Shown: positions 10,146 to 33,816 of the stretch, in pieces
Layout of the letters: each line of letters opens with the position of its first letter
How positions within the stretch are numbered: position 1 is the stretch's first letter
Assembly: GCA_030638385.1 (NCBI GenBank)
Contig: DAOWES010000261.1
Span: 1-33,816, forward strand
Origin: Candidatus Cloacimonadota bacterium
Lineage (GTDB): Bacteria; Cloacimonadota; Cloacimonadia; Cloacimonadales; TCS61
DNA length: 33,816 nucleotides
Direction: 5' to 3'
Position numbers and translations under genes: made by a program
The notes under the pieces: model-generated
Seen by the model: the letters and a program-made list of their open reading frames with translations, nothing else
What the model was told of the DNA's origin: nothing
The model's database searches: none

Positions 10146-10146
10146 T

Positions 10147-10494
10147 TTAAGCCGCTCCCGACCGGGTAATATCAGCCTCGATTATAAATGCTCCAGTGCC
10201 GCTTGAATGAATACTTCCGTCACCTTTGATATACTGGACATCGTAAAGATATTTTTTAGGATCAATGTCTGTATCTTCAGAAGTTAATTCTATTGAATGG
10301 ATTCCGGTGGAATTTCCGGCCACCTCTTTTGAAATAATTGCACCAGAATCATCAGTCACAGAAGTTGCAGGGATATCCTCTCGGACGGTAAAATAAATCG
10401 TATAACCAGTAGTGTCGACAAACTCTCCCTTGTTCTTAATATTGATTGTAAATGCTCGAGTATCATTTCTTTTTATTTTGATTGTACTTCCCAT
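10147..10494 (-). CDS. Hypothetical beta-rich virion protein (115 aa)
   Basis: A class L promoter lies 21 nt upstream. The stop lies 1 nt before the fibre ATG. Confidence 0.55.
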   Translation of the reverse strand: MGSTIKIKRNDTRAFTINIKNKGEFVDTTGYTIYFTVREDIPATSVTDDSGAIISKEVAGNSTGIHSIELTSEDTDIDPKKYLYDVQYIKGDGSIHSSGTGAFIIEADITRSGAA

Positions 10495-10515
10495 GATTCA
10501 AGAAGGCGATGAGAT

Positions 10516-10531
10516 GTTTATATATTTATTT
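10516..10531 (-). promoter_or_regulatory. Class L TATA-like promoter (coding strand AAATAAATATATAAAC)
   Basis: The motif is followed by 21 nt and then ATG 10494, with no SD. Confidence 0.6.
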
Positions 10532-10853
10532 AGGAGATGATAATTCCCATAGATTCTAAAATAGTCATAATCAATGCTGCGCAAAGCAATCCGCAAACTG
10601 CAAAAACTGCTCGTTTCATCCATTTGATATCCTGACCCTGACGGATTGAGGATTCAGTTAAAGTTTTGATATTCTTATTCATAGCAGTGGTGTTATGATT
10701 GAATGTAAGAATCATCTGTTGAGTATTGTGGTGCACGTCTTTCATCGATCTTGGCTCTCGATACATTGGAACAAAATTTTCATCTACCATTTTTTCACCC
10801 AACATATCCTTCCGAAAATTCTCACCGAAGGGTACATTAATTTTACTTTCCAT
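10530..10853 (-). CDS. Membrane-anchored protein (C-terminal TM helix); start uncertain (10853, 10805 or 10790)
   Basis: The C-terminus AVFAVCGLLCAALIMTILESMGIII is hydrophobic. The ORF overlaps the end of the DUF1353 gene, so an internal ATG is likely. Confidence 0.45.
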   Translation of the reverse strand: MESKINVPFGENFRKDMLGEKMVDENFVPMYREPRSMKDVHHNTQQMILTFNHNTTAMNKNIKTLTESSIRQGQDIKWMKRAVFAVCGLLCAALIMTILESMGIIIS

Positions 10854-11140
10854 TTGTAAGTCCCATAACGAATCATGAGCTCTTTGAAAATCTGATCTGC
10901 ATCCTTCCGGGTACCATGTTGAAAAGTATAAAGATAATCATGAACGACTGCAGCAACCGCAAAATCTCCTGAAAATGGATGACCAATTATAGGCCAGAAT
11001 ATTTTTGGAATACTTGCCCCATCAGTTCGAAATCCTTTCGGAATAATAACAACTCCCTGAGAAGTATTTACCTTCAGATCTTGTTCAAGCTTCCAATGTT
11101 TGAATCCGTCATTTGTTATGATTAATCTAATTTCTTTCAT
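10784..11140 (-). CDS. DUF1353-family protein
   Basis: GFRTDGASIP...AAVVHDYLY is the signature of this phage-associated family. Confidence 0.6.
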   Translation of the reverse strand: MKEIRLIITNDGFKHWKLEQDLKVNTSQGVVIIPKGFRTDGASIPKIFWPIIGHPFSGDFAVAAVVHDYLYTFQHGTRKDADQIFKELMIRYGTYKWKVKLMYPSVRIFGRICWVKKW

Positions 11141-11270
11141 TTTCTAGGGCCTCCACCCGATCAAACAATTCTTCAATTAATTTTCTAACTTCAAAACCCT
11201 TGAAAGTTCTATCCTTCTCAACCTTTCCTTTCATTTCTTTTCTTAATTGTTTTATATTTTTATTTTCCAT
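11127..11270 (-). CDS. Small coiled-coil protein (47 aa from ATG 11270)
   Basis: MENKNIKQLRKEMKGKVEKDR... The ATG shares one nt with the upstream stop (TAATG). Confidence 0.4.
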   Translation of the reverse strand: MENKNIKQLRKEMKGKVEKDRTFKGFEVRKLIEELFDRVEALENERN

Positions 11271-12337
11271 TATTGGGGCCACATTTGGTAAGCATAACCA
11301 AACAACCAAGGAGTAGAAGTTCCGGATGCTTTAAGATTTATTTTCAAAATGACATCAGTATCATCACCATCTAAATTAATAATTGAATCGAGAGGCTGAT
11401 CAGTAACATCATAGGTAGATCCCCCATCAGTAGAAATATCTATGGTAATGCTAGTCCCCGAAAGGCTTGTGTCCCCATTACCATTTAAGATTCCTGAAGA
11501 GATATTTGATGGGAGGGTTTTAAGATTAGTTTGAATATATGACGATGAATCGAAATTAAGATAAACATTATCAAGATAATGGGATGCACTATCTGCTCCA
11601 TCATTTGCCCTACATCTGAATCTAACAGTCCCACTAAGTGCGGAAGCTATTTCTCTTACAAAAACTCCATCTTTGTAAAGTCTATGTGTGGAAGCTCCAA
11701 CTTTGAAAATCTCCCAAGTCCCAGTAGTATAATCATCATAAATTGTCAAGGCATTTTCTCCAACGTCGACAATAACGACCCCCCCAATAGAAACTGAATT
11801 TATCCCCGTTGCGCTTGTGATTAAAGTTACCGCATCCCATTTAAGATAATCTGTATAATTAGTATCTGAGTCCAAATAAGCATTATTTTCATCATTCCCT
11901 CCTGGATTCGCACAATTCATTTCTATTCTTTGGTTCTGCTCAACAACTGATGCGGTTCCAATACCCCCTCCCAAATTAGTTGTAACCGTCCATAAATTTG
12001 TATCTAAGGAATTATCATTAAAATCGTCATAAAGTGTTCCTGCAATAATATATCTATCTTCAACTAATCTCGCAGTCGTATTTCCAGTATCTACATGATT
12101 ATTATATCCGTTTGAATCAGAAAAAAGTTCTGTCTCGGCCCACGAATAATCCTTGTCAGTTATTGATGCATCTTCAGATAAAATTGTTGATTGATTAATG
12201 CCCTGTAAAAAAGTGATTGAGCTTTCTATAAGGGCACCTGCGAACCTTGTAAAAGTATCATTCTGATCAGTGGGTTTAATCCTATCTGAAGGAGTGCTCA
12301 AATCAGATCCCCCGGCCTTAGTACATTTAATTGCCAT
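11270..12337 (-). CDS. Tail/baseplate protein with lectin-like (ConA/LamG-type) region
   Basis: LYDDFNDNSLDTNLWTV...is typical of the first strands of ConA-like/LamG domains. The gene sits in the tail module. Confidence 0.4.
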   Translation of the reverse strand: MAIKCTKAGGSDLSTPSDRIKPTDQNDTFTRFAGALIESSITFLQGINQSTILSEDASITDKDYSWAETELFSDSNGYNNHVDTGNTTARLVEDRYIIAGTLYDDFNDNSLDTNLWTVTTNLGGGIGTASVVEQNQRIEMNCANPGGNDENNAYLDSDTNYTDYLKWDAVTLITSATGINSVSIGGVVIVDVGENALTIYDDYTTGTWEIFKVGASTHRLYKDGVFVREIASALSGTVRFRCRANDGADSASHYLDNVYLNFDSSSYIQTNLKTLPSNISSGILNGNGDTSLSGTSITIDISTDGGSTYDVTDQPLDSIINLDGDDTDVILKINLKASGTSTPWLFGYAYQMWPQ

Positions 12338-12714
12338 TATCCTGTTTGGTCAAGGACCTCAACCGTTAATTTATATCCTACATTGATTTCTCGATCTGCA
12401 GTCTTTGCAACTACCACCTCTAAAAGTCTGCTCAGTTTAAGGGTATCTCCTGACAGATCTGTGAAGACTCCAAGTTTTTGAAGAGTCTCTCCATTTGCTT
12501 CAGTCAATCCAATAAGCGCATCAAATTCATAAGTGAAGAAAGCTGTATCTTTAGAAGAAACCGAAAGGGCTTTTCTCAAAAACTCTCCGGCAAGTACATC
12601 AGAACTAGCTAATTCATTTGAACCATCGTCGGAGAACCCCATGTGAGAAATTACATCGAACTCATCAAGAGCACTATTGTTTATACTATCAACTATTTCC
12701 TGATTCAAAACCAT
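12337..12714 (-). CDS. Hypothetical tail/baseplate protein (125 aa)
   Basis: A class L promoter lies 21 nt upstream of the ATG. The stop overlaps the next start. Confidence 0.55.
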   Translation of the reverse strand: MVLNQEIVDSINNSALDEFDVISHMGFSDDGSNELASSDVLAGEFLRKALSVSSKDTAFFTYEFDALIGLTEANGETLQKLGVFTDLSGDTLKLSRLLEVVVAKTADREINVGYKLTVEVLDQTG

Positions 12715-16468: not shown

Positions 16469-17407
16469 CTAAGAACTAGCAAATAAATCACCATCAATCG
16501 AAATATCCAAACCGATGTAATCGCAAGAAAGCTTCTTAGTCTCGTTATCATTATTCATATCCCTAGATCGAGTATTTGTTCGAGATGCAGCGATAGTGAA
16601 AACATGGTCATTGCTTGATCCTCTTGCAAGAGTCAAAACAATTGGAATATTAGATCTCTCATCTTCGTAACCGGTATCAATATTGTCATCCATTTCAGAT
16701 TCAAAAGATCCAGTAAGTGAGAGGTTATGCCTAATTATTCGATTGATCACTCTTCGGCCATTTGCAGATTCAACTTCTATTCCTCGGCCATCTTCCGGAG
16801 CAACATTCCAGTCCACTGCAATTGTGAACGTATCAAGGATAGTTGCATTTCCATCATAAGTAACAGTCGCATCAAGTCCTCTGAAAACATCTCCAACATT
16901 TGTTGATGGAGCAAGCGCCTCTGTAGCCGTAGCCAATTTCTGTGCCTGATAATTAAGAGACATTTCAACTGAAGCATCTTTGTTCACAGTGATCTCTCCG
17001 CCAGTGATACACATTCCAGTCATCTCTTTTGTTTTTCCTGTGGTCGTGTTGACCTTCATCGAGTAAGATAAATCGTCGGATGTAACTGGAGCCGTGATAA
17101 TTGTATAAGTTCCGTCACCATTGTCCGTAAAGTCACCGCATAAGGCCTTTAGAAGCACCGCCATTGAAGCTTTTGTGCATTTTGTGGTGATAGTACCACT
17201 TAAATTATAAAGATCATCATCAAGGTCGATAAGCGTATGTTCTGAATTCATTGAACTGATCTCTTCAACAGTATCATCTTCAGAAATTGTAATGTTTTGA
17301 ACATGGCCAAAATCCAATGCAGTGAATGGTGCCGGCTTTGTTCCGTAGGTAGACTCTTCTGCAATGATGTACTTATTTCCTACGTTGCTTAAAACTTCGG
17401 TTGCCAT
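16469..17407 (-). CDS. Major tail (tube) protein candidate (312 aa)
   Basis: Located immediately upstream of the chaperone pair. It has its own class L promoter and is beta-rich. Confidence 0.55.
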   Translation of the reverse strand: MATEVLSNVGNKYIIAEESTYGTKPAPFTALDFGHVQNITISEDDTVEEISSMNSEHTLIDLDDDLYNLSGTITTKCTKASMAVLLKALCGDFTDNGDGTYTIITAPVTSDDLSYSMKVNTTTGKTKEMTGMCITGGEITVNKDASVEMSLNYQAQKLATATEALAPSTNVGDVFRGLDATVTYDGNATILDTFTIAVDWNVAPEDGRGIEVESANGRRVINRIIRHNLSLTGSFESEMDDNIDTGYEDERSNIPIVLTLARGSSNDHVFTIAASRTNTRSRDMNNDNETKKLSCDYIGLDISIDGDLFASS

Positions 17408-17975: not shown

Positions 17976-18423
17976 GCTTGATCGACTTAACAGCCTTTAT
18001 CAGAAGTCGCTCCAAGAGTGGAGTATCTTTCTCAATATCTTCAATGACATTGTTAGGTTTTGTTCCAGGGTGTTTAACTTCCTTGAAGAAAAAGAATCCA
18101 TTTGATGTTGGAGATTGCGGAGAGATCGGAGCCTTGGGCCAATTGAATTTGAGTGCTTTACGGTTCTTAGGCCGGATGATATGAGGTTTTGTTCCCTGCA
18201 AATAATATCTCAGTATTTCATCATTGGAACCAATAATCCAGTCTGCACCTTCTTTTGAAATTGCAATCTTATTTCTAAATCTTTTTGGGAGCCTTAGAAT
18301 TATCTCCCTCTGAAGTTGGAATGCAAACCTTGTAAGAATGATATCCATAATCTTGTTTAAAGATTTCTGATCTAACGTGAGGAATCCTTCAACCACGATA
18401 TTTTCCAGTGCCAAACTTTCCAC
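17962..18423 (-). CDS. Head-tail joining protein, HK97 gp10-like candidate
   Basis: LQGTKPHIIRPKNRKALKFNW...FKEVKHPGTKPNNV resembles the gp10-family pattern. Synteny agrees. Confidence 0.45.
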   Translation of the reverse strand: MESLALENIVVEGFLTLDQKSLNKIMDIILTRFAFQLQREIILRLPKRFRNKIAISKEGADWIIGSNDEILRYYLQGTKPHIIRPKNRKALKFNWPKAPISPQSPTSNGFFFFKEVKHPGTKPNNVIEDIEKDTPLLERLLIKAVKSIKQINI

Positions 18424-18910
18424 GAAGAACTTTCAAGAATCTTGTTCTCTTGTCAATCCATTCAGCATAAATCGGATCAATAGTCTGATTCTTGAACGGA
18501 TTGAGACGAGTTCTAAAATTAACGATCGTATAGGCCCGCTCCAAAAGTTTATAATTTGGGGGGACGGAGTACACTTCAACACAATCCCCCGTGGTTAGAT
18601 CATCAACTTCAACACCACTGTTATTCCTAACTAAACGATATTCTGAATCATCCAATTCAACAAATTGTGTGGCCCCTGCAGATAAAACTCTCACTGAAGT
18701 TATCTTCGTCATATTGAAATAAGTGAAGAAGGTATTGTTCCCACGATTGTTTGCCACAAAAGAATCGAATTCAATGGACCTTTTCAAGTCAGAAACCATC
18801 TCCTCATTTGCATCATTGATATAGATTTGAATATCTTGATCCTCAAGGGTCTGATTCTCGGTTTCTAAAAGAAGCAGCTTCTTAATCTCTTCAATAGTGT
18901 TGTGTGCCAT
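18389..18910 (-). CDS. Head-tail connector/adaptor (gp6-like) candidate
   Basis: The N-terminus IEEIKKLLLLETENQTLEDQDIQIYINDANEEMVSDL matches the usual adaptor N-terminal helix pattern. It has a class L promoter. Confidence 0.55.
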   Translation of the reverse strand: MAHNTIEEIKKLLLLETENQTLEDQDIQIYINDANEEMVSDLKRSIEFDSFVANNRGNNTFFTYFNMTKITSVRVLSAGATQFVELDDSEYRLVRNNSGVEVDDLTTGDCVEVYSVPPNYKLLERAYTIVNFRTRLNPFKNQTIDPIYAEWIDKRTRFLKVLRGKFGTGKYRG

Positions 18911-18930: not shown

Positions 18931-18945
18931 GTTTATATATTTAAT
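18931..18945 (-). promoter_or_regulatory. Class L TATA-like promoter
   Basis: ATTAAATATATAAAC plus spacer plus ATG 18910. Confidence 0.6.
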
Positions 18946-18948
18946 CAA

Positions 18949-20844
18949 CTAACTAGCGATTTCTAAAAATCCGGCCTGGACATTATAATCGATAGTCTTC
19001 CGATGTTCCTCATCGTCAGGGATCGTTCTTGTTTGTCCTGGAACAAACCATAACACCGGGCCATTAATCTCAAGCTTCCCAAGATTTACCTTCTTTAGGG
19101 CCCTTACTTTGATGAACTTCCCCTTGATTATTGGCCCTGTTTTTATAACCATGTCTGGAACTTTTTGAACTTCACTAAGGATCTTTTTCTTATTTGCCCT
19201 GGCTTGGGTGATCATGTGATTGAAGATCTCTTCATAATATTTGAGCATGATCGGCCAAGAGTGTTCATTTGCGAATACTCGTGCTGCAGCCCCATACTCC
19301 ATCCTATTTCTTGGATCCTTAAAATATTCAAGTGCATCATAGATTTCGGCCGCATTTCTTTTTGCCCAGAAGATCTCCATATTTTGACAGACATCACTAT
19401 GCCATCCGATCTCTGGAGTGATCACTGGAATTCCACTTGCCATTGCTTCGTTGATTGTGTTTGAACAACCTTCGGAATTTGAGGGTAAAAGAAGAACGTC
19501 AATCTTTTGATAGAAGTCTGGCATCTCTTCGAATGGAACTTGAGTGCCTGCAGTGTTTGAAGCGATCATTGTTTTTAATCCGGCCATGTCTGAGCAGTAG
19601 TCCACATAATTAATTCCCTTCAATTGCTTTTCAGATTCTTCCTTGGATCGGCCAACAAATCCAACAATGTAATCTTCACGATCGTGATGTTTCTTTTGTT
19701 TGAACTTCTTTGTGTTGACTCCGTTTGGTAAGACGAAACATTTCTGGCCACTTTTTGATTTCTTGATGAAATGATCTACAAGAGATTTTGCTTCGTTGTT
19801 TTGAACGATCACTCCGGCCTCACCTTTTCCATCAGCCATTTGCCGGTAAAATCTTGAGAAGAGAGAATCTCCCCCAGTTGTGATTGTTGAGAAACTTATG
19901 GCCCTTAAATCTGGCCTGATCTCTAAAAGCTTTTTGTGTCTGTAGGATCCACATCTCCCCCAAACTAGATCCCCCTTCCAGGCAAGCAGCTCGTTTCTCT
20001 GATGAGATACATTGTAAATAACTGTAACATCAAAATTGGATATCTTCATTACTTCTTTTACAGTTGTCGCATAACACCAATCACTATCGTCGACGTGGAT
20101 TAAGATTTTCCGATTAGATATCCTTCCCATAAACTCCAGGTACTTATCACTATATCCTGGATGCCTTGATTCAAGATCCTCAATGAATTTGTCATGAGTG
20201 AAATTAACATCATCCATATTCAAAGTTCCGGCACCAGTCCGGCCACGATCGCTCCAGGATGCAGCCTCTTGATCATAATAGAAGTTTGACCATCTGCCGA
20301 ATTCGATTGGATGCTTTTTTCCCTGCAGCTTACAAAGTGCAAGTTGATCAGAGTACCAATCTTTATCATGTTCGCCACATAACTTTTCGTATCGGGTTGC
20401 CTCTTCAGCAGAATTGATTCCGAAGATCTCACAAGCATAAACAGATTTTCCTTCAGCCTTTCCATAGTCTCGCCGCATCAAGAGAACGTCCCCCCGAGTG
20501 AATTTGTCAGTGATCTCGGAAACGTCACTTCGAATAAGCGCAGTCACATCGATCCACAAAACAGGTTCTTTGAATTTCTTGAATGCTTGATTGACAAATT
20601 TCCCTTTCAGATAAGTGACCTTGAAACATTTTCCTTCAGGATTATTCTTGCCCCTGGCCTCTGCCTCAACTCGATGAGATTTGAAAAGTATGTTTGGGAA
20701 TTGTTGTTTTAAGAATTGTGCTTTTTTGGAAGGTAAGTTTATGAGATTAACTAAGATTTTCTCGACGGTGTTTCCTTCGAGTCCACAAATGAAGTGGTGC
20801 AACCAATCAAGATATCCTTCAGTTGCCATTGTTACGATTACCAT
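18949..20844 (-). CDS. Two-domain glycosyltransferase (GT-A-like N-terminal domain + GT-B/GT4-like C-terminal domain), about 631 aa from ATG 20844
   Basis: The N-terminus MVIVTMATEGYLDWL...VLWIDVTALI is typical of nucleotide-diphospho-sugar transferases. The C-terminal domain carries the GT4 EX7E-type motif (NSEGCSNTINEAMASGIPVI). The track start at 20898 is a TTG. Confidence 0.7.
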   Translation of the reverse strand: MVIVTMATEGYLDWLHHFICGLEGNTVEKILVNLINLPSKKAQFLKQQFPNILFKSHRVEAEARGKNNPEGKCFKVTYLKGKFVNQAFKKFKEPVLWIDVTALIRSDVSEITDKFTRGDVLLMRRDYGKAEGKSVYACEIFGINSAEEATRYEKLCGEHDKDWYSDQLALCKLQGKKHPIEFGRWSNFYYDQEAASWSDRGRTGAGTLNMDDVNFTHDKFIEDLESRHPGYSDKYLEFMGRISNRKILIHVDDSDWCYATTVKEVMKISNFDVTVIYNVSHQRNELLAWKGDLVWGRCGSYRHKKLLEIRPDLRAISFSTITTGGDSLFSRFYRQMADGKGEAGVIVQNNEAKSLVDHFIKKSKSGQKCFVLPNGVNTKKFKQKKHHDREDYIVGFVGRSKEESEKQLKGINYVDYCSDMAGLKTMIASNTAGTQVPFEEMPDFYQKIDVLLLPSNSEGCSNTINEAMASGIPVITPEIGWHSDVCQNMEIFWAKRNAAEIYDALEYFKDPRNRMEYGAAARVFANEHSWPIMLKYYEEIFNHMITQARANKKKILSEVQKVPDMVIKTGPIIKGKFIKVRALKKVNLGKLEINGPVLWFVPGQTRTIPDDEEHRKTIDYNVQAGFLEIAS

Positions 20845-21114
20845 TTTATGAATATTGGACCCGGAGGTTTTACCCTCCAACTTATCACGTGATTGCAAAC
20901 TCCTGACCGAATCGGAATTTCTTCTTATCGGAGTGAAAGCTTAGGCCCCATTATTGTGTTGCGCACAAACCACACCCTGCAAGGAATGACCCAACCTTAC
21001 CCGAGATGCCAGTGTCCGTCGGGACCTTAGAGCATTGTCCTTGATGGTTAGTTTTTAGCCGACCCCAAAGAGTTACTTAGGCGAGGGGCTTTTGAATTCC
21101 CGATTCCGCAACAT
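20845..21114 (-). promoter_or_regulatory. G+C-rich structured leader / candidate cis-regulatory RNA (island B)
   Basis: The region runs from the predicted start at 21114 to the GT ATG. A 9-bp closing helix pairs 21098-21106 with 20909-20917, including a G-U pair that would be a C-A mismatch on the other strand. There is a CCCGA...TCGGG hairpin. A GGAGG-GTAAAA-CCTCC hairpin lies at 20863-20878. A 13-codon leaderless mini-ORF spans 21114..21073. Confidence 0.5.
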
Positions 21115-21135: not shown

Positions 21136-21143
21136 TATATAAA
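21136..21143 (-). promoter_or_regulatory. TATA-like promoter (TTTATATA) of the glycosyltransferase cassette
   Basis: The octamer is followed by exactly 21 nt and then an ATG (21114), the same geometry as the other 14 promoters. Confidence 0.55.
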
Positions 21144-21149
21144 ACTTTC

Positions 21150-21205
21150 TAAGAAAAAGAGTTTGTGGGGACCCGAAGGCCCCCGAATAAAAATAAAAAA
21201 ATAAT
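21150..21205 (-). terminator. Terminator after the capsid gene: T-rich run, GGGGGCC-UUCG-GGUCCCC hairpin, T-run
   Basis: The coding strand reads TTTTTTTATTTTTATTC GGGGGCCTTCGGGTCCCC ACAAACTCTTTTTCTT. The 7-bp stem (one G-U) has a UUCG tetraloop at 21167-21184. The wobble pair works only in the minus-strand RNA. Confidence 0.65.
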
Positions 21206-21215
21206 CTACTTAAGA

Positions 21216-22298
21216 TCAACTAGAGACTGTTTCCACAAGTCTGAAAACGGCTTCAGGCTGAATTACTTCAACACCATAAAGCTTCAAACCAATCACTTCC
21301 CAGTTTACTGTTGCGGATTTTCGTCCGTCTAGCATCTGGATAGCGCTGCCTTCAATCAAGTATTTACACCGATTAGTATCGACGATATACATGTTGTTAG
21401 CAGAAGCTTGAGTTGTCAAAACTACCTTCAAGCCCAAGAAGTCTTGGATTCGAGGGAATAATGATCCTTCGTTAACAGAATTATAACCTAGAGCTGCGAT
21501 CACATTTGAGTCCTTCAAGAAGTTCCCCCATGTAAAAGAGTTAGTAACAATAGCGTCAGGTAAAGCGTTCAATCCAATGTGAGCCATAACTCCAGTGATC
21601 AGATCACTATAAGTCATTGTGGAAGCCAACAGAGTATAATTGCTGTTAGCATTTGAGTCGGGACTAGCCGTTTCAATTGCTGCAACAATGTCTGTGTCCA
21701 CTTTTCGAGCAAGAGCATCTCCAATCTCAAACATCTGATCCTGAACTATGTCGATAATACCTTGCTGAATTAACTGTAAGGTAATAACTTCATAAGAGAA
21801 GATCCATGCCAATGTGATTGTAGCACTTCCATAATCATCGTTAGATGGGTCTGGGAGTTCTCCGGAGTCCGGAAGAGCTGCTGCAGTCTTAAGCGCACTA
21901 ATTGGAATCTTAACAGTCTCAACACCACTTGGGTTCACTGAAATAGTCCGGATGATTTCATTCATAACCAACTTAGGTCTGAATGCTCTCTCCACAATAT
22001 TTCGAACAATAGTTGTGTACAAAGCGCCATTGTTAGGGAAAGTCATATCCTCAGTACTCATTCCTTCGAAATCTTCACAGCTTGGCATTTCCATACCTAA
22101 AGCATTTTTGAAGAATTCTGTCCCACGCTTCTCGTGAGCATTAGATAAGAACGCATCCTCTTTCGCTAAATTCACATAGCTCTCAAGGATCTTTTTACCA
22201 AGCTTTTCAACAGTGTTTGTTTCAACCTCCATTGGAATTGCCTTGTTCTCTCTATCAGAGATTCGGATTTCTTTGCCTAAAAATTCTAATTTTTGCAT
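21216..22298 (-). CDS. Major capsid protein (HK97-fold type)
   Basis: 360 aa, directly downstream of the protease-scaffold gene. A GGGGG SD lies upstream and the strongest terminator follows. Size and position are canonical. Confidence 0.8.
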   Translation of the reverse strand: MQKLEFLGKEIRISDRENKAIPMEVETNTVEKLGKKILESYVNLAKEDAFLSNAHEKRGTEFFKNALGMEMPSCEDFEGMSTEDMTFPNNGALYTTIVRNIVERAFRPKLVMNEIIRTISVNPSGVETVKIPISALKTAAALPDSGELPDPSNDDYGSATITLAWIFSYEVITLQLIQQGIIDIVQDQMFEIGDALARKVDTDIVAAIETASPDSNANSNYTLLASTMTYSDLITGVMAHIGLNALPDAIVTNSFTWGNFLKDSNVIAALGYNSVNEGSLFPRIQDFLGLKVVLTTQASANNMYIVDTNRCKYLIEGSAIQMLDGRKSATVNWEVIGLKLYGVEVIQPEAVFRLVETVSS

Positions 22299-22331: not shown

Positions 22332-23480
22332 TCAATATTGTCGGATTTTCTTTCGATTCGCCGAAATATCAACGATGTCTTTGCCTTCAGATTCATCTCC
22401 TTCCAGAGATTTCTTCTTGTTAGCAATTGACTCTTTTGTTGGGCATGGCTTCCCATGCTTAGAAGTAAATGTCTCCTCCTTGTTGGGTTCTAGTTCTTCA
22501 CCCTCTTCGGATTCATCAGGAGTATCAACATCTTCCGCACCCTCTTCTTCATTCAAAGTATCAATTTTTGACTCTGCAATTGCAAGCCTGTTTTCAAATT
22601 CATCATTCTTGGATTCAAGCTCAGAAACTTTGTTCTCAAGTTCAGTGATCCTTTCTTCAGGAGTCGCTTCTTCGTCTGCTTGCTCTTCACCTTCTGAATC
22701 AGCTTCTTCCTTTTTCCCGATTAGTGCTTCTTTGCCCTCTTCGTCAGTCTCTTCGGCCTCGGCTTCCTCAGTACCTTCTTCAGAACCTTCGTCCCCGTCA
22801 GCGGATTCGTCTTTGTCTTTTTCATCATCATCATCATCATCATCAGCTTCGTCTTCTTTATCGTCATCTTTGGCTTCTTCGGACCCCTCTCCTTCTGGAG
22901 ATTCTTCTTCAGAATCTTCTTTCTTCCCAACAGCATCAAGTGCGGCCTTTTCTTTCAAACTTTGAAGAACCTTCTTATCTCCAAGTGCATTTGCCAAAAA
23001 CATTGCGCTTTCAAGTCCTTCTTTTTCAGCGCTTGTGTTAGAAAACCCTGGAACAGTTACAGCGCTTAATTCAACATACTCTTTCACATCACATTCGTAA
23101 ATATTATCTTCCTCATTGAACTGAACATTTTCAACCATACATCCAACAGAAACAAACTTGATATCTCCTCGCTCAACTTTTCGGATGTACTCTTTTTCTT
23201 CAGGATCCACATCAGCTGAGTAGGTCAAATGAGAATCAGTTAATCCGGATTTTGTCACATGGCCAAGAGATCTTGCCGAATCATGATTAAACAAAAATGC
23301 AACACCTTGAAGAGACTTCGCAGCTTTCTTCACTGAATCAGGCCTATACCTCACACCGTTTCGAGAATCTTCATTAAGCGGCTGCGCATTTCCAGAAATC
23401 ATAATGGTTGCTTCCTTACCTTCGCCCTTCTTTTCAAACTGCATTTCTTCAGTATGGAATAATGTAATTGGTTCAGCCAT
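22332..23480 (-). CDS. Prohead protease - scaffold fusion (382 aa from ATG 23480)
   Basis: FLFNHDSARSLGHV and KFVSVGC match the HK97-type prohead protease His and Ser regions. The C-terminal 200 aa are extremely acidic (EADDDDDDDEKDKDE) with a coiled coil. A class L promoter lies 22 nt upstream of ATG 23480, so the track start at 23558 is rejected. Confidence 0.75.
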   Translation of the reverse strand: MAEPITLFHTEEMQFEKKGEGKEATIMISGNAQPLNEDSRNGVRYRPDSVKKAAKSLQGVAFLFNHDSARSLGHVTKSGLTDSHLTYSADVDPEEKEYIRKVERGDIKFVSVGCMVENVQFNEEDNIYECDVKEYVELSAVTVPGFSNTSAEKEGLESAMFLANALGDKKVLQSLKEKAALDAVGKKEDSEEESPEGEGSEEAKDDDKEDEADDDDDDDEKDKDESADGDEGSEEGTEEAEAEETDEEGKEALIGKKEEADSEGEEQADEEATPEERITELENKVSELESKNDEFENRLAIAESKIDTLNEEEGAEDVDTPDESEEGEELEPNKEETFTSKHGKPCPTKESIANKKKSLEGDESEGKDIVDISANRKKIRQY

Positions 23481-23502
23481 AATTCTTTTAGGAAAACATC
23501 TA

Positions 23503-23515
23503 TTTATATATTTAA
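23503..23515 (-). promoter_or_regulatory. Class L TATA-like promoter
   Basis: TTAAATATATAAA plus spacer plus ATG 23480. Confidence 0.55.
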
Positions 23516-23713
23516 TTAAAGCCGCTTGTAGAAAATCCGAACACCTTTCTTCTTCCACTTAACTTTTCCGTGAGATCTTAATCGTCGGAGGGCCTTATTC
23601 ATATTGATCTCTGAACCATCCCCCCACTTTTCATTGAAGATTCTTTTGACAGCCATCCCGTCGGTAAACTTGTCTAGGGTGTCAATGATCTCAAGCATAT
23701 CATCATAATACAT
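23516..23713 (-). CDS. Small basic protein (65 aa), possible DNA-binding
   Basis: ORF between the Mu-F-like gene and the protease gene. The C-terminus is Lys/Arg-rich. Confidence 0.45.
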   Translation of the reverse strand: MYYDDMLEIIDTLDKFTDGMAVKRIFNEKWGDGSEINMNKALRRLRSHGKVKWKKKGVRIFYKRL

Positions 23714-23714
23714 T

Positions 23715-24506
23715 TTATCTGATCACCACTGTACATCTACAATTGGGATGAGAATTTAGAACTGGAAGAGGATTGTTCGGGGTCCCGGCATATTGTACTT
23801 GATAGATTTTCTCACGACCCTTTGGGCCCTGGTTGTGTCTGCAGATCTTTGAGACTTTTGAATCGTTTGAGGTGATGTAATTGTATTCTTCGATCTCTGC
23901 TTCTTTCATGGTTTGGACTTGACCGAGAACGTGCGACTTGACAACTTCAGTCCTGGAGATTCGCATGGCCCTTTTGCTTGAGATTGATCTAATCGAACTA
24001 TGGATCTGTTGAGAAATCTTCTGAGGGTCTTGGCCCTTTTCTAATCCATCAGCAATGATTTGATTTACTTTTTTTGATTGTGCCTGGGAAACACCTTCAT
24101 AATAATCTAGTTGTTGATCGATCAGGATATCTATTGCTGCAGTGTCTTCGATCTCATCGAACTTGACAACTCCCCCCTCCTTGTCGAGAATTCGTTTGGA
24201 TCCTTTCTGAAAACTATCAAGCAAGAGTTCCCTGGCAGTCTCAAATAATTGGACAATTCTCTTATTGATCGCTGCAAAATAATCATAAACAATTTCATTG
24301 AAACTTTCCTGCTGGATGAATGGCAGGTTTTCAGACAAGAGACTCTCAATCAAAGAAGGATCATAAAACGTATTAAATATTTCCTTACGATATTTCTTCT
24401 CTGCAGTTTTCACGCCATAATACTTTTTCTTATCAATCAGTCGCCGGGCTTTCTTCGTCGCCATTTTCAGGAATCTTCCCTCGTTGATACACTTCTTTTT
24501 TCCCAT
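23715..24506 (-). CDS. Head morphogenesis protein (Mu gpF / SPP1 gp7-like)
   Basis: The C-terminal ...NPLPVLNSHPNCRCTVV is the hallmark of this domain. The gene sits directly after the portal gene. Confidence 0.75.
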   Translation of the reverse strand: MGKKKCINEGRFLKMATKKARRLIDKKKYYGVKTAEKKYRKEIFNTFYDPSLIESLLSENLPFIQQESFNEIVYDYFAAINKRIVQLFETARELLLDSFQKGSKRILDKEGGVVKFDEIEDTAAIDILIDQQLDYYEGVSQAQSKKVNQIIADGLEKGQDPQKISQQIHSSIRSISSKRAMRISRTEVVKSHVLGQVQTMKEAEIEEYNYITSNDSKVSKICRHNQGPKGREKIYQVQYAGTPNNPLPVLNSHPNCRCTVVIR

Positions 24507-24539: not shown

Positions 24540-25970
24540 TTAATTTTCAACCTTGTTCTTTTCTTTAGCCTTCTTCTCACCCAATAATTTTGAAACCTTC
24601 TCGAGAGTCTCTTCAGAAGATTCACCTGCGCCTGTTTCCCACTTGTAAGCTTCACCGAAATCATCATCTTTTGGATAACCTAACTCGACACGATATTCAT
24701 CAAGCTTGATTGTCCCATCGTTCCATTCTTTTTGAAGCCTGTTAATTCTATCAACCATAAGCTCAACATCATATCTTCCCCACTTCCATTTGTATCTCGC
24801 CTTTGGAACTGTGATATTATCGCCGATTGCTTTTAGACTTGCATTCATTCCCTCGTGAACCGATTCATTCAATGTTCCAGTGAAATAATTTCTAATGGAG
24901 GAAATAGCCAAATAGAATAATTGTGCTTGCTCTTGAGAAGTTGATCTGTTGACAAGCTCCCCGTGAATAATAAACTCCGGACTCAAAACCGAGCTCACTT
25001 TTCTCTTGAAGTAATCCAAATATTTTGATAGGTCAAGTGCTTGGCCCCCATCAGTAAGATTCAATGCGCTGAACTTTCGACCAACAACAGGACTCTCATA
25101 ATCTTGAAGACTTTCCAATAATTTCTTAACCTTATCAACTGCAGGATCATCCATGATGTCTTCTTCGTCGGTTACTTCGGGCATGATCATCTTAATTGGA
25201 ACTGCCTTGTATCTGGAGATAACTGCAATTGCTCGCTCCATAGATAATAAAATATCCACATCATTAAGAGTTGCAGCAATTGGCGATCTTCCGTAAATCC
25301 CCCAGATGTTCCTCATGAATCTGAAGTGAATAATTTCGTCCGGAGAATATTCAATTCCATTAAAGCTTTCAACACCCCATGCAGTTTGAACAGAATATTG
25401 TTTTAGCTTAAGTTTCTTTGCTTGGGCGACGGTGAAGTACATCCTTTCGATATATCTTATCGGCTGCTGAGTCTTCCAATCGAATTCAATATAAATATCT
25501 TCAGAGTTTTCAATGTTGACATATTTGAAGGATCCCTTGTTGCCCTTGATCTTTCTTAAATAACCATCACCAGTTGCGACTGCTTGAGTAATTGCTTCAC
25601 GAGCCTCTGGCCTGTATTGAGAAAAGTGCAACCATTTATCTCCGTAATCTTCAAGGACTTCATTTGGAGATTCGATTCCAGGGCAATCTCCCATGAGAAC
25701 ATTCACCAAATAATTCACACTGGTTTGGATAAAAGTATTGTCATCAAAGGCCTTCTTACATTTGGCTTTCTCCTCGTGGATTGTTAATGTTCGAGAAGTA
25801 AAAATGTCTTTTGCGTATTTGTAAGAAAGTCCGAAATATTCGAATCCAGAGATAAGTGCATCGAGTTGAGTTTGAACATCACCAACCGCTTCAATCAATT
25901 GGGGTTTTGTTTTTGCCTGCAGTTTCTTCAATTCCTGTTTAGCACCAATTTTTACCTTCTTCTTCACCAT
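24540..25970 (-). CDS. Portal protein (476 aa from ATG 25970)
   Basis: Called on position between terL and the Mu-F-like gene and on size. A class L promoter lies 22 nt upstream of ATG 25970. The longer track reading overlaps terL by 74 nt. Confidence 0.75.
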   Translation of the reverse strand: MVKKKVKIGAKQELKKLQAKTKPQLIEAVGDVQTQLDALISGFEYFGLSYKYAKDIFTSRTLTIHEEKAKCKKAFDDNTFIQTSVNYLVNVLMGDCPGIESPNEVLEDYGDKWLHFSQYRPEAREAITQAVATGDGYLRKIKGNKGSFKYVNIENSEDIYIEFDWKTQQPIRYIERMYFTVAQAKKLKLKQYSVQTAWGVESFNGIEYSPDEIIHFRFMRNIWGIYGRSPIAATLNDVDILLSMERAIAVISRYKAVPIKMIMPEVTDEEDIMDDPAVDKVKKLLESLQDYESPVVGRKFSALNLTDGGQALDLSKYLDYFKRKVSSVLSPEFIIHGELVNRSTSQEQAQLFYLAISSIRNYFTGTLNESVHEGMNASLKAIGDNITVPKARYKWKWGRYDVELMVDRINRLQKEWNDGTIKLDEYRVELGYPKDDDFGEAYKWETGAGESSEETLEKVSKLLGEKKAKEKNKVEN

Positions 25971-25992
25971 AAGCTTTTTAAGTTTTTCGTGT

Positions 25993-26006
25993 TTTATATA
26001 TTTATT
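25993..26006 (-). promoter_or_regulatory. Class L TATA-like promoter overlapping the terL stop
   Basis: AATAAATATATAAAA plus spacer plus ATG 25970. Confidence 0.55.
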
Positions 26007-27213
26007 CTTCCGGGCCCCTGCCAACAATTCCAGTTCCAACCGTTTTGACCTTTCGAGATTTCTTCTCCAGGCCATATCTCATCGCATCCATCAGATGATC
26101 GTTTAAATCGATTGGAGTATCAAGCACGTGCTCTTGAGAGTCTGTCTTCCATTTGTATGATCTTAATTCTTTAGCCAAGTTGACAGAGTCTTTTGTTACA
26201 AATAAGGAATTCTGTTTGATGAAGTTTATTCCTCTGAGAATAGATCCCTTCCCTTTCTTTGTCTTGTGTATGTTGAACCCGGCCTGTTTGATATCTCTGA
26301 TTATTTCGGGTCGGGCTGAATCTGCAATGATAGTTGAGTCCCTTTTAAGAGCTCCAGATTCAACTAATGCCTCCAACTTCATAACAATGTTCTCTGAAGT
26401 TAATTCTGTTTGATAGAGAAGCTCCTGAACCATTATTCCCCCTTTAGGATGATATCTGATTCTTACGAGTGTTGTTGGATCGTTAAAACCAAAGTCCATG
26501 CCATACAATTCTTCTCCTTCGAACTCTTCAATCTTAATATCCCTTCCACCCCGATTCACAGCATATTTCCAATGAGGATAAATAGTTGATTTGGGTGCAC
26601 CCCTTTCTCCGAGTCCATAGATCCTCCACATATTCAAATCTCTCTCCTTGAATTTTAGGATCTTTCTGATGATTTCTTTTTCAAGGAATGGATTATCTTT
26701 GTAGGTTGACTTATGGAAAAAGTTATCCTTGTCATCAGCATACTCATCATAGAACCAGTGGAATGTTTCTGAAGGATTATAATCTGACCAAGATTCTTTT
26801 TTGGTTCGCATCATGATTTGCTCAACATCCATTTTCTTCATCGAAAGAACTTCATTGAAATAAGTCCTATCACGTCTTGGCCCACGAACCTTGTCTTCAT
26901 TGTCTGATGAATAAAACCTCACCAAGTTGGATTTTATTCTATACTCATGATGGGATTTGTTGTGCATATTTTTTGAATAGATCCCGTGCTTTTTTAGAAT
27001 ATCTTCCCAGTCTTTCATTGCAGAGATCCTAAGCGCAGGCATCGTATCTCTCACTACATCAATTGTCTCATTTTCCCACTGGCTTAAACATCCAATTAGA
27101 ATTCGATAAAGTATGGACCAAGTTTTTCCTGAAGATGAGCCTCCCTGCAATATCTTCGTGGGATTTTTTTCATCCATCAACATCCGAATATTCGGTGTAA
27201 TAGGAATCTTCAT
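26002..27213 (-). CDS. terL: Terminase large subunit
   Basis: It has Walker A GGSSSGKT and the nuclease-domain motifs IIADSARPE and DHLMDAMRY. AGGAGG lies 5 nt upstream of the ATG. Confidence 0.9.
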   Translation of the reverse strand: MKIPITPNIRMLMDEKNPTKILQGGSSSGKTWSILYRILIGCLSQWENETIDVVRDTMPALRISAMKDWEDILKKHGIYSKNMHNKSHHEYRIKSNLVRFYSSDNEDKVRGPRRDRTYFNEVLSMKKMDVEQIMMRTKKESWSDYNPSETFHWFYDEYADDKDNFFHKSTYKDNPFLEKEIIRKILKFKERDLNMWRIYGLGERGAPKSTIYPHWKYAVNRGGRDIKIEEFEGEELYGMDFGFNDPTTLVRIRYHPKGGIMVQELLYQTELTSENIVMKLEALVESGALKRDSTIIADSARPEIIRDIKQAGFNIHKTKKGKGSILRGINFIKQNSLFVTKDSVNLAKELRSYKWKTDSQEHVLDTPIDLNDHLMDAMRYGLEKKSRKVKTVGTGIVGRGPEE

Positions 27214-27855
27214 TTAGGCCTCCTTCTTCACACAAATAATTCTCTGATATTTCTCGAAGTCTTTGATTACCTTAAGCCTTGTAAAAACTTCTGCACCCAC
27301 TTTTGTCAATGCAGCGATTCCACCAGTTCCCTTTCGAACGTCCAGGATCAATGTTGCGCCAGGCTTCATGACTCTGATTGCTTCATTCAGATAAGTTTCA
27401 ATAGGATAATGGAATCCCCAACTGATGAGGGATGTTACGAGATCCACAGACTCGTCGGCCAACAAAATCTCGTTATCATCTGTTGCGAATTGCGCAAGTG
27501 AATGAACTCCATTGGCCAATAATGTGTCCACTGACAAGTCTAGTGAATTATAAAATGCTCCCTCATCCTTGAAGCCATACCAAATATTATCTTCAGTCTG
27601 GGTTTTGTCGATCATGGTGATGTTGACGATTCCAGAATAAGCTTCTTGTAATAAAATATTTTGAATTCCGATTCCGGATCCAATATCTACCACATTTATC
27701 TGTTCATGATCATCAGTGAAATCCGGTAAGAAATCTTTGTAAGTATCAAAATCTCTTCGGAAGTCAGCTTCAATCTCTTCAGCAGTTACACCTTCTTTGA
27801 GCTGCGTTCTCTGCAGAAGAATAAACTTAATCGCTTCAGGAGTTAGTTTCAACAT
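27214..27855 (-). CDS. Class I SAM-dependent methyltransferase (not an obvious DNA MTase)
   Basis: Motif I is VVDIGSGIGIQ and the post-I region is VNITMIDK...MKPGATLILDV. No (D/N/S)PP(Y/F) motif was seen. Confidence 0.7.
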   Translation of the reverse strand: MLKLTPEAIKFILLQRTQLKEGVTAEEIEADFRRDFDTYKDFLPDFTDDHEQINVVDIGSGIGIQNILLQEAYSGIVNITMIDKTQTEDNIWYGFKDEGAFYNSLDLSVDTLLANGVHSLAQFATDDNEILLADESVDLVTSLISWGFHYPIETYLNEAIRVMKPGATLILDVRKGTGGIAALTKVGAEVFTRLKVIKDFEKYQRIICVKKEA

Positions 27856-32862: not shown

Positions 32863-33816
32863 TTATTTTCTAATCCCCACTATTTTTAATTTTAAGAACT
32901 CTTTTTCTGTTTCCGATAATTCCAACTTCTTTGCAATTTTTGAGGGGAATGTGAATCGATAATTTTTCTTTGCAATTGATTTTTTGATGCAAACTTCAAA
33001 TGAATCAATTTCTTCCGGATTCAAGATTTCTTTATAGCCCTTGTCTTCAAGTTTCCCTTCAACACTGTTTGTCAATAAATCTAATTCTTTTTTTAGATCA
33101 ACAATGTGTGCAATGAAATCTTCTTTTTCTAAGGTCCCTTCCAATTTCAGAAGAGTATCACATTTGAAGCTTGTAATTCTGGCAGAGATTTTCCTGCAGT
33201 CCTCCCTTACAGATTCCATTACTTTAATATCATCCTTGAATTTATGGAAGGTTCCAAGCTTTTTCTGAAATCCATTCCACTCGCCCTTCTCTAATTTCTC
33301 AACATAAATATTCACATGAGCCTGAATGATCCTACAATTTGCTCCCTTCAAACATCTCTGGTATAAATGTTCTCGATATTTTGGATCTCCAATCCTTGCA
33401 AGTTGTTCTGCTTGTTTGATTACTAATCTCCCCTTAGCTTCTACACCACTTTTATTGAAGATTATATTCCGAGACATTGATCTTGGAAGTCTGAGCAACA
33501 TCAAATAAGTCACTGCATTGTTTTCGCTAATTCCTAGACTCTTGAGTATCTTCTCACATCTAAAAATATCATTCTCTTCAAAACCAGTGGTCTTTTTCTT
33601 TTGGTGTTCTGGATAATATCCTCGGCGTTTAAAATTCTTTAGCATATTGATCAAAGTATACATCCTCTCGGGATCATCCCGTGTTGATTTTATTTGAGAA
33701 AAAAGAAGTCTGATTGAGTTTGCTTTTTCCAGAGGGGTCAAGTCTTCCCGGATTAGATTTTCATGAACTAGATCAACCATTAAAGTATTATCCTTCTTTC
33801 TTGTTTTGATGAATGC
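32863..33816 (-). CDS. parB: ParB/Spo0J-like protein, remainder of the same gene (cut by the window end)
   Basis: The open frame continues to the window edge. It contains LTPLEKA and a ParB-type HTH (GISENNAVTYLMLLRLP), followed by a roughly 200-aa helical C-terminal region. Confidence 0.85.
   Translation of the reverse strand, partial: AFIKTRKKDNTLMVDLVHENLIREDLTPLEKANSIRLLFSQIKSTRDDPERMYTLINMLKNFKRRGYYPEHQKKKTTGFEENDIFRCEKILKSLGISENNAVTYLMLLRLPRSMSRNIIFNKSGVEAKGRLVIKQAEQLARIGDPKYREHLYQRCLKGANCRIIQAHVNIYVEKLEKGEWNGFQKKLGTFHKFKDDIKVMESVREDCRKISARITSFKCDTLLKLEGTLEKEDFIAHIVDLKKELDLLTNSVEGKLEDKGYKEILNPEEIDSFEVCIKKSIAKKNYRFTFPSKIAKKLELSETEKEFLKLKIVGIRK
33676..33816. repeat. Terminal direct repeat, right copy (identical to 1..141)
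   Basis: Same 141-nt string as bases 1-141. Confidence 0.95.

Follow-up and report, generated by a model that had tools for sequence, protein, structure and literature searches.

The DNA analyzed here, referred to below as the window, is the whole of contig DAOWES010000261.1 and has a length of 33,816 nucleotides; it is contig C192 of a 1.87 Mb, 316-contig metagenome-assembled genome (MAG) classified as Candidatus Cloacimonadota. This report concerns a gene on its minus strand, the strand on which every gene of the window lies, that encodes a predicted two-domain glycosyltransferase (GT). The gene is situated between the gene for the major capsid protein and a weakly connector-like gene, within a block of genes for head and tail morphogenesis. 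Comparison of sequences leads us to conclude that it is a vertically inherited, separately regulated core gene of this morphogenesis block in a lineage of tailed viruses of approximately 34 kb. The gene and the parts of its product are as follows.

18949..20844, minus strand: predicted bifunctional GT gene (P0001), with the TAG stop codon at 18949-18951 included (from the list of open reading frames and from homologues)
20113..20844, minus strand: N-terminal GT-A-fold domain, residues 1-244 (from an AlphaFold2 model of the domain and Foldseek)
20548..20550, minus strand: codon of D99, at the DxD position of the GT-A fold, here a degenerate D-x-T/S (from alignment and the secondary structure of the model)
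20344..20349, minus strand: codons of D166-Q167 (W-x-S-D-Q), candidates for sugar binding or catalysis in the GT-A domain (invariant in 34 sequences)
19195..20112, minus strand: compact GT4-type GT-B domain, residues 245-550 (from Pfam, NCBIfam GT4 families, Foldseek and alignments with stand-alone proteins of ~300 amino acids)
19447..19473, minus strand: EX7E motif E458-G-C-S-N-T-I-N-E466, the donor-binding/catalytic signature of GT4 enzymes (from alignment)
18952..19194, minus strand: disordered linker (about 551-574) and small basic alpha/beta domain (about 575-631), together the "type A" tail (from isoelectric point, model confidence and alignment)

Domain architecture of the glycosyltransferase

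The list of open reading frames and the translation give a product of 631 amino acids from an ATG codon. An alternative in-frame TTG codon at 20898 would add 18 residues and yield a product of 649 amino acids. When 33 homologues are aligned, their N-termini begin with M-x-I-V-x-M-x-T-E, which matches the ATG at 20844, and we therefore place the start of the gene at that codon.

The GT-B domain is recognized by several methods. Residues 435-520 match the Pfam families PF13692 (Glyco_trans_1_4; E 1.2e-11, 45.4 bits with a cut-off of 27) and PF00534 (Glycos_transf_1; E 1.9e-10, 41 bits with a cut-off of 26.4), and the protein matches PHROG 2170, annotated "glycosyltransferase", with an E of 7.6e-15. 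Pfam and PHROGs pick up the donor-binding half only, at residues from about 435 to 545. For the N-terminal acceptor half, the Pfam scan returned no match to PF13439 (Glyco_transf_4) or PF13579 (Glyco_trans_4_4), and this half is shortened as it is in viral GTs of ~300 amino acids. In an exhaustive phmmer search, many stand-alone GTs of that length aligned end to end with residues 245-550, which is why we regard these residues as one compact GT-B unit. The two glutamates of the EX7E motif, E458 and E466, are invariant in an alignment of 34 sequences, as are G459, N462, T463 and A467 in and beside the motif and, elsewhere in the domain, R399, K409-G410 and a TTGG loop. The AlphaFold2 model of the full protein has a mean predicted local distance difference test score (pLDDT) of 91.2, with values below 50 confined to the linker at residues 562-574. 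Foldseek matched this model with a probability of 1.00 to MshA, SenB, BshA, PimB', PglA and a chlorovirus GT (3oy2), with target template modeling (TM) scores of up to 0.70. The nearest NCBIfam matches of the GT-B domain are the GTs of PEP-CTERM and exopolysaccharide systems, Agl16, TuaC and PelF-type enzymes. Thus, by profile, motif and modeled fold the domain is of the GT4 type, and catalysis is predicted for it.

The N-terminal domain is recognized by its fold. When modeled in isolation by AlphaFold2, residues 1-244 give a pLDDT of 93.6 and a predicted TM score of 0.91, and Foldseek matches this model to retaining GT-A enzymes with a probability of 1.00, an E of about 6e-8 and TM scores of up to 0.62. 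The enzymes matched are the catalytic domain of UGGT, LARGE1, glycogenin, GlyE, LgtC, WbbM and the ABO transferases, which belong to families GT24, GT8 and GT6. Residues T8, Y11, N36, T77, K80, W97, D99, W163, D166 and Q167 are invariant in the 34-sequence alignment, and T8, Y11, K80, D99, D166 and Q167 remain so even at 30% identity. In the model, T8 and Y11 follow the first strand and D99 ends the beta-strand formed by residues 95-98. D99 is part of the motif W97-I/S-D99-x-T/S101, in which the first aspartate is conserved and the canonical DxD is absent. The invariant pair D166-Q167 may be the equivalent of the D-Q pair of the GT8 enzymes LgtC and glycogenin.

Sequence profiles do not detect this domain. 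Pfam gave no match for it in the whole protein, nor did PF01501 match any of 17 isolated N-terminal domains at E values of up to 10; a profile of the domain produced one match among PDB sequences, a spurious one (E 0.4), and none in PHROGs. Alignment of the profile with E. coli WaaJ/WaaO by hhalign gave a probability of 3.6%, which is not significant, and no GT8 genes from which a better profile could be built were found in the bin or in 12 relatives. Compared with the GT8 and GT24 enzymes LgtC, glycogenin, GlyE, UGGT and the xylosyltransferase domain of LARGE1, residues 1-244 are alike in fold (TM 0.5-0.62) and in the invariant aspartate that follows a beta-strand at the DxD position, with the invariant D-Q pair downstream of it as a putative further likeness; they differ in the lack of a PF01501 match, in the lack of profile similarity to WaaJ/WaaO and in the degenerate DxD. 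Given that the fold matches, yet profile-profile comparison detects no significant similarity to GT8 enzymes, the model indicates that the N-terminal domain is GT8/GT24-like in fold but constitutes a separate sequence family, seen only in fusion with this GT-B domain.

The C-terminal tail, residues 551-631, has an isoelectric point of 9.8 and contains 15 lysines and arginines and 9 aspartates and glutamates. Its pLDDT is below 50 at residues 562-574 and between 70 and 94 in the small domain that follows. Across the family, the tail comes in two alternative forms or is absent, as in the GTs of 540-560 amino acids found, for example, in relatives L009, L010 and L037. The second form, unrelated to the first in sequence (…KYIAED.GM…FKPG…NYFKQNFPNKFEF), occurs only in L006, L007 and L032. 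The tail matches no Pfam or PHROG family. It occurs only fused to this GT and was not found as a separate gene in the viruses whose GT lacks it.

The protein has no membrane segment, as its Kyte-Doolittle mean over 19 residues peaks at 0.88 and across the family never exceeds 1.49. This lack of transmembrane segments does not agree with a membrane-bound GT of the serotype-converting Gtr type. The GT protein matched none of the PADLOC defense models.

An initial annotation, made from the letters of the window, had described a protein of about 631 residues at this position, amid structural genes, with a GT-A-like domain, a GT-B domain of the GT4, EX7E type and a basic tail. Our analysis agrees with each part of that description: the reading frame and its start are backed by the homologues, the GT-B domain by Pfam scores above cut-off, an invariant EX7E motif and a confident model that matches GT4 structures, and the tail by its composition. 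The GT-A fold is supported by the isolated-domain model and Foldseek, though not by sequence profiles.

The loss of the second aspartate of the DxD and the variable, lineage-specific tail domain are compatible with a structural or assembly role, akin to decoration or scaffolding, in which the GT folds would be kept for binding sugar or protein and one or both domains would be inactive. The position of the gene is compatible with such a role as well, since phage genes for decoration or accessory head proteins are often found between those for the capsid and the connector. Speaking against it, the signature residues for donor binding in the GT-B domain are all invariant, and the residues of the GT-A pocket are invariant at 30% identity, a pattern that fits selection for catalysis. 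Also, we know of no virion protein of such a kind. We consider a structural role improbable and favor an enzyme.

Conservation and regulation within the morphogenesis block

The initial annotation had proposed that the gene was inserted as a moron-like cassette between capsid and connector genes, and had suggested a survey of related genomes for the presence of the cassette between the same flanking genes. We carried out this survey on the capsid relatives with readable downstream DNA, a set of nine that consists of the window, L001, L002/L034, L003, L008, L009, L010, L035 and L037. The GT gene is present in all nine (9/9), in each case directly downstream of the capsid gene and ahead of the connector genes. 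Amino acid identities to the window for the capsid protein and the GT, respectively, are 70% and 51% in L035, 69% and 39% in L002, 68% and 54% in L001, 67% and 37% in L008, 55% and 32% in L010, 54% and 31% in L037, and 53% and 30% in L009. The identity of the GT falls with that of the capsid protein, which indicates vertical co-inheritance of the two genes, with the GT evolving faster. The composition of the gene is also native, with a G+C content of 0.410 compared to 0.407 for the capsid and protease genes and a codon-usage distance of 0.168; of the 11 genes that encode 300 amino acids or more, only two have a lower one.

Searches beyond the capsid relatives yielded about 30 full-length homologues with 30-66% identity, mostly on contigs of 30-37 kb and all on contigs of viral type. 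The homologues are all found in structural-gene contexts, so that both of the outcomes named in the initial annotation as counting against it, a lack of profile support for GT folds and an association with non-structural contexts only, differ from what we observed. In L004, a very divergent contig of 46 kb with a Mu-type portal and a capsid protein without BLAST similarity to that of the window, the GT gene again follows immediately after the capsid gene. In a third lineage, comprising L006, L007 and L032, it is the last gene at the tail end of the structural block, ahead of the early genes. Megablast of a 10 kb region against 50,697 phage records returned no match, and tblastn of the GT protein against the same records returned a single weak one, with 25.7% identity over 28% of the query. 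A survey for the capsid protein gave 1 locus in IMG/VR and 4 in JGI metagenomes, and the lineage is thus rare in these two collections.

The GT homologue of L004 (P0028, at 10001-12535) carries an intein of ~300 amino acids, 3 residues past the second glutamate of the EX7E motif (…EGCSNTIHEAMS/C…/GIPCI…). Inteins characteristically occupy conserved sites of proteins that an element cannot lose, and the location of this one beside the EX7E motif points to the GT being indispensable, as far as the sequence can indicate it.

The junction between the capsid and GT genes contains three features of note.

21151..21205, minus strand: terminator-like region past the capsid gene, consisting of a T-rich run, a hairpin and a T5 run (from sequence)
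21136..21143, minus strand: TATA-like box TTTATATA, the putative promoter of the GT gene, 21 nt upstream of the ATG at 21114
20845..21113, minus strand: G+C-rich insertion of ~268 nt that separates the conserved promoter/start position from the GT ATG (from alignment with relatives)

The hairpin, GGGGGCC-UUCG-GGUCCCC at 21167-21184, has a folding energy of -15.2 kcal/mol, and no other 26-nt hairpin on the coding strand of the genome is as stable. At the same place, relatives have an oligo-T run with or without a hairpin, followed by a TATA box, about 21 nt and the start codon of the GT. Because the relatives keep this layout in a compact form, the GT appears to be ancestrally a separately promoted, leaderless gene located behind the capsid terminator. 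The ~268-nt stretch is absent from L002, L035 and L008 in the alignment. A mini-ORF of 13 codons stands at the head of this insertion, and its ATG at 21112-21114 occupies the ancestral leaderless start position. We had considered the leader of ~270 nt as a structured riboregulator and dropped this idea, since shuffled sequences fold just as stably as it does (z 0.0) and it matches no Rfam family. In L001, whose GT is 54% identical to that of the window, the gap between the capsid and GT genes is filled by a gene of the HNH_3 homing-endonuclease type (9516-10013). The presence of this gene and of the window insertion in the same gap suggests that mobile DNA repeatedly inserts at this junction.

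The initial annotation had described the gene as insulated by the strongest terminator of the genome and driven by its own promoter. The most stable hairpin with its T-runs and the TATA-like box are indeed there; it is from their sequence that we infer their action as a terminator and a promoter. Such an arrangement of a capsid terminator and a separate promoter would lead to the production of less GT than capsid protein.

An own TATA box, an upstream terminator-like hairpin and visits of mobile elements to the gap (the HNH gene of L001 and the 268-nt insertion in the window) are all features that might mark the GT gene as a moron, that is, a recently acquired auxiliary passenger without a role in morphogenesis. 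The layout of promoter and terminator is ancestral and common to the relatives, however, and hence it is not diagnostic of an insertion. The presence of the gene at one site in all nine capsid relatives, its co-divergence with the capsid protein, its native G+C content and codon usage and the restriction of about 30 homologues to viral-type contigs likewise contradict a recent acquisition. This explanation, and with it the moron-like cassette of the initial annotation, is largely refuted, and we assign it a very small residual likelihood; the gene is better described as a core component of the block.

Neighboring genes and the nature of the contig

According to Pfam and PHROGs, the neighbors of the GT gene form a head-tail morphogenesis block of standard type.

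27213 to 26002 (26002-27213), minus strand: large terminase
24540-26075, minus strand: portal
23715-24506, minus strand: MuF-like protein
22332-23558, minus strand: S78 prohead protease whose long C-terminal region is acidic
21216-22298, minus strand: HK97-type major capsid gene (Pfam Phage_capsid_4, E 4.2e-07; PHROG major head protein)
18389-18910, minus strand: head-tail connector-like gene (weak match), preceded by a TATA box of its own, ATATATAA, at 18933-18940

The TATA box of the connector-like gene starts 8 nt past the GT stop codon. The Pfam matches of this gene to Phage_connect_1/2 are weak (E 0.07-0.09), and its synteny is kept in the relatives. Thereafter the gene order is two small genes, the tail tube gene (16469-17407), a chaperone gene and a gene for a tape-measure-like protein. 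The prohead protease joins a Peptidase_S78 domain (residues 48-178) to a D/E-rich, extremely acidic stretch of ~200 amino acids that includes coiled-coil-like segments and is probably a fused scaffold. A gene for a class I S-adenosylmethionine (SAM) methyltransferase (27214-27855; Methyltransf_11, E 2.4e-05), with a counterpart of 39% identity in L001, immediately precedes the large terminase gene; its product could act on sugar or protein rather than on DNA.

The gene content also bears on whether the GT glycosylates modified bases of viral DNA, in the style of the T4 glucosyltransferases, as a protection against restriction. Phage DNA glucosyltransferases have the GT-B fold that residues 245-550 share. 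In addition, virus-encoded GTs that hypermodify DNA are increasingly reported (bioRxiv 10.1101/2023.12.21.572611). Set against this, a Pfam scan of ORFs of the window turned up no hydroxymethylase, TET/5mYOX or other gene for base modification, and the sole methyltransferase belongs to the generic class I SAM group. The GT gene lies in the head/tail block and not in a block for replication or nucleotide metabolism, and the top Foldseek matches of its product are GT4 enzymes and not T4 glucosyltransferases. We regard DNA as a most unlikely substrate, and a protein or a surface glycan as the candidates to be weighed.

The window carries an exact direct terminal repeat of 141 bp (1-141 and 33676-33816), which indicates a circular assembly and thus that the genome, of about 33.7 kb, is complete. 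Of the 40 contigs in the bin that reach 10 kb, it deviates the most in tetranucleotide composition, with a correlation of 0.879 compared to more than 0.97 for the others. The bin itself looks bacterial, with long ORFs resembling SecA, PolA, AcrB and UvrA and with tight tRNA clusters; no rRNA genes were found in it. The capsid protein of the window is absent from the 202 other genomes of the order to which the bin belongs.

Two recurring A/T-rich boxes, AAATAAATATATAAAC and AAACATTTAAATAC, are located 21-22 nt upstream of ATG codons that lack a Shine-Dalgarno sequence. They precede more than 10 genes besides the GT gene, among them those with starts at 18910, 17939, 17407, 15813, 12714 and 10494 and at 32127, 16434, 5389 and 3915. 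Genes internal to operons carry GGAGG-like sites. The geometry of the boxes and the internal GGAGG-like sites together indicate archaeal TATA promoters with leaderless first genes. In species-representative genomes, full-length members of the family come from two "Candidatus Woesearchaeota" MAGs, which account for three contigs, from a single Bacteroidales MAG and from one "uncultured archaeon". The "uncultured archaeon" belongs to the same order as one of the Woesearchaeota bins, and 3 of the 5 family-bearing bins are Woesearchaeota or of that order. Judging by promoter geometry and binning, the contig is probably an archaeal tailed virus with a DPANN host of the Woesearchaeota type that was mis-binned with a low-GC bacterium.

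Predicted function and significance

The initial annotation had left two functions open, glycosylation of the virion and modification of the host envelope. We favor the first, which draws on the capsid-adjacent synteny, and retain the second as its main rival. Specifically, we propose a soluble, bifunctional enzyme that is made late and attaches sugars to virion proteins, the capsid protein being the most likely one, and we give this reading a probability of roughly 0.45, somewhat below even odds. The GT gene would be transcribed from its own TATA promoter, just past the terminator that closes the abundant capsid transcript, and the enzyme would be made alongside the virion proteins at a lower, separately set level. 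The retaining, GT8/GT24-like GT-A domain and the retaining, GT4-type GT-B domain would then attach sugars, two or more in succession, to a virion protein in the cytoplasm, with the major capsid protein as the most likely acceptor. The donors would be nucleotide sugars of the host, supplied in some relatives by the virus, and the variable basic C-terminal tail would serve as a docking module. What the sequences and models show is a protein with both transferase folds, invariant pocket residues and no membrane segment, from a gene under purifying selection that keeps its place in the virion gene block. We infer the enzymatic activity, the acceptor, the timing of expression and the role of the tail from these features of sequence and model.

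Several considerations favor this reading. The capsid-adjacent position of the GT gene recurs in two capsid lineages without BLAST similarity to one another, and the gene shows the behavior of a core gene. Assembly of tailed virions takes place in the cytoplasm, within reach of a soluble GT; the type of tail on the GT switches with the genomic position of the gene; a relative encodes a nucleotide-sugar dehydrogenase; and precedents exist in mycobacteriophages and chloroviruses. The dehydrogenase gene, of the UDP-glucose/GDP-mannose type, is located at 1-414 in L003, upstream of ParB-methyltransferase and terminase genes, in a relative that has an identical GT protein (P0012); it suggests that nucleotide-sugar modification is supplied by the virus. 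Several of the enzymes matched by the GT-A fold (UGGT, glycogenin, GlyE and LARGE1) act on proteins. The capsid protein ends in serine in the window and in 7 relatives (8/8), with C-termini that read ETVSS, ETPSS, ETVESS, ETPASS or TGFES and with the window residues encoded at 21216-21230. As a speculation from sequence, these C-terminal serines could be an acceptor site. We also considered the serine-rich end of the tail tube protein (...LFASS) as a shared acceptor motif and rejected it, since it is unique to the window and not conserved in relatives.

Other observations weigh against glycosylation of the virion. Gene adjacency is only a circumstantial pointer to a substrate, and for this uncultivated virus any glycan on a virion protein is hypothetical. 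In the lineage of L006, L007 and L032, the GT gene is at the tail end of the module, away from the capsid gene. The N-terminal domain could be a binding module instead of a catalyst, given its degenerate DxD and the lack of a sequence link to GT8 enzymes such as WaaJ/WaaO. The nearest families of the GT-B domain, those of the exopolysaccharide, PEP-CTERM and Agl16 types, act on lipid-linked or polysaccharide acceptors. The assignment of the host has promoter geometry and binning as its whole basis. Finally, surveys have interpreted the GTs of DPANN viruses as auxiliary genes that act on the host surface (PMC11310336, PMC12647753).

The last points lead to the main rival, in which the enzyme would remodel the host surface late in infection by acting on glycan precursors linked to dolichol phosphate, on S-layer or pilus glycoproteins or on surface polysaccharide. 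Such remodeling could block superinfection, keep progeny off lysed cells or alter the attachment of the DPANN cell to its partner. GT4 enzymes commonly use lipid-linked acceptors at the cytoplasmic face of the membrane, which agrees with the PEP-CTERM/exopolysaccharide, Agl16, TuaC and PelF-type matches of the GT-B domain, and the basic tail (pI 9.8) could provide peripheral membrane binding. Surface-converting genes, on the other hand, are usually sporadic and located near lysogeny modules, whereas this gene is strictly kept in the structural block, adjoins the capsid gene in two unrelated capsid lineages and co-diverges with the capsid as a core gene and not as an accessory one. The protein also has no transmembrane or signal segment. 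The published precedents for this rival are the interpretation given for GTs of viruses of the candidate phyla radiation and DPANN (PMC11310336, PMC12647753) and a preprint on Asgard viruses that names surface alteration as the alternative to virion glycosylation (10.1101/2021.07.29.453957). On balance, we consider remodeling of the host surface somewhat less likely than glycosylation of virion proteins, which remains our preferred reading.

Among known systems, one close parallel to an enzyme of this kind is found in chlorovirus PBCV-1, whose capsid glycans are assembled in the cytoplasm by A064R (638 amino acids, two GT domains and a methyltransferase) and A111/114R (PMC7826918). These proteins resemble the window GT in being virus-encoded, soluble, multi-domain GTs of similar size that are cytoplasmic and conserved across a virus group (PMC7826918), and the matches of the whole GT protein by fold in BFVD are multi-domain GTs of giant viruses, among them comparable two-domain GTs from giant viruses other than chloroviruses. 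They differ in that PBCV-1 belongs to the Nucleocytoviricota of algae and the window to an HK97-type tailed virus, in their domain composition, in GT genes that are not adjacent to the capsid gene and in the absence of detectable sequence homology beyond generic GT folds; glycosylation of the capsid is demonstrated in PBCV-1 and proposed for the window virus.

A second parallel is provided by mycobacteriophages, in which phage GTs decorate proteins of the capsid and tail tube (Freeman et al. 2023, cited in PMC11256854 and PMC11600133). Che8 and Corndog/cluster O are, like the window, tailed viruses with cytoplasmic GTs of their own, and a methyltransferase accompanies the GTs (PMC11600133), as the window likewise encodes one of the class I SAM type. 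The mycobacteriophages have bacterial hosts and two to four single-domain GT genes near the right end of the genome or in tandem (PMC11256854, PMC11600133), whereas the window has one fused GT-A and GT-B gene beside the capsid gene.

In archaeal viruses, many structural proteins are glycosylated (bioRxiv 10.1101/2021.07.29.453957), and comparison of folds shows compact GT-B enzymes to be frequent. Those of ~300 amino acids from His1 (ORF31), a lipothrixvirus, ABV3, a spiravirus and cyanophages have the architecture of residues 245-550 (target-normalized TM 0.63-0.75). In contrast to the window protein, the archaeal-virus enzymes are single-domain proteins of non-tailed viruses, with no GT-A domain, no tail and a putative function.

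The initial annotation had judged a virus-borne dual GT at this position to be unusual. This holds only in part, since giant viruses also have multi-domain GTs (PMC7826918), and archaeal and DPANN viruses frequently carry GT genes (PMC11310336, PMC12647753). Fused GTs for capsid glycans in chloroviruses, compact GT-Bs in archaeal viruses and glycosylation of virions in mycobacteriophages are thus already known. What is new is that a previously unrecognized GT-A sequence family is fused to a compact GT4 domain, that the fusion is conserved within the morphogenesis block of small, probably archaeal tailed viruses, and that its tail is interchangeable. In the literature that we searched, we found no description of a GT-A and GT4 fusion as a conserved gene of a morphogenesis block.

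Virus-encoded glycosylation of virions is established in few systems, namely chloroviruses, other giant viruses and some mycobacteriophages, and it affects the immune recognition and stability of phages. If our preferred reading is true, self-glycosylation would extend to archaeal tailed viruses, here small viruses of ultra-small archaea, and the enzyme and the capsid protein would form a compact, expressible pair for testing protein glycosylation. A broader and more doubtful extension is that a lineage of tailed viruses of DPANN (Woesearchaeota-type) archaea self-glycosylates its HK97-type capsid in the cytoplasm by way of one fused GT-A and GT-B enzyme whose gene is locked to the capsid gene, with interchangeable tails that choose between head and tail targets. 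If this extension is true, the window virus would be the first self-glycosylating archaeal tailed virus, and its GT would represent a compact module for two-step protein glycosylation. A new GT-A sequence family, one that current profile libraries miss, would also be defined. Should the GT instead act on the host surface, it would bear on the viral manipulation of the cell surface through which DPANN cells hold on to a partner. The synteny of the GT with the capsid protein and their co-divergence speak for a role in morphogenesis, and they correct the habit of calling every viral GT an auxiliary host-surface gene or moron.

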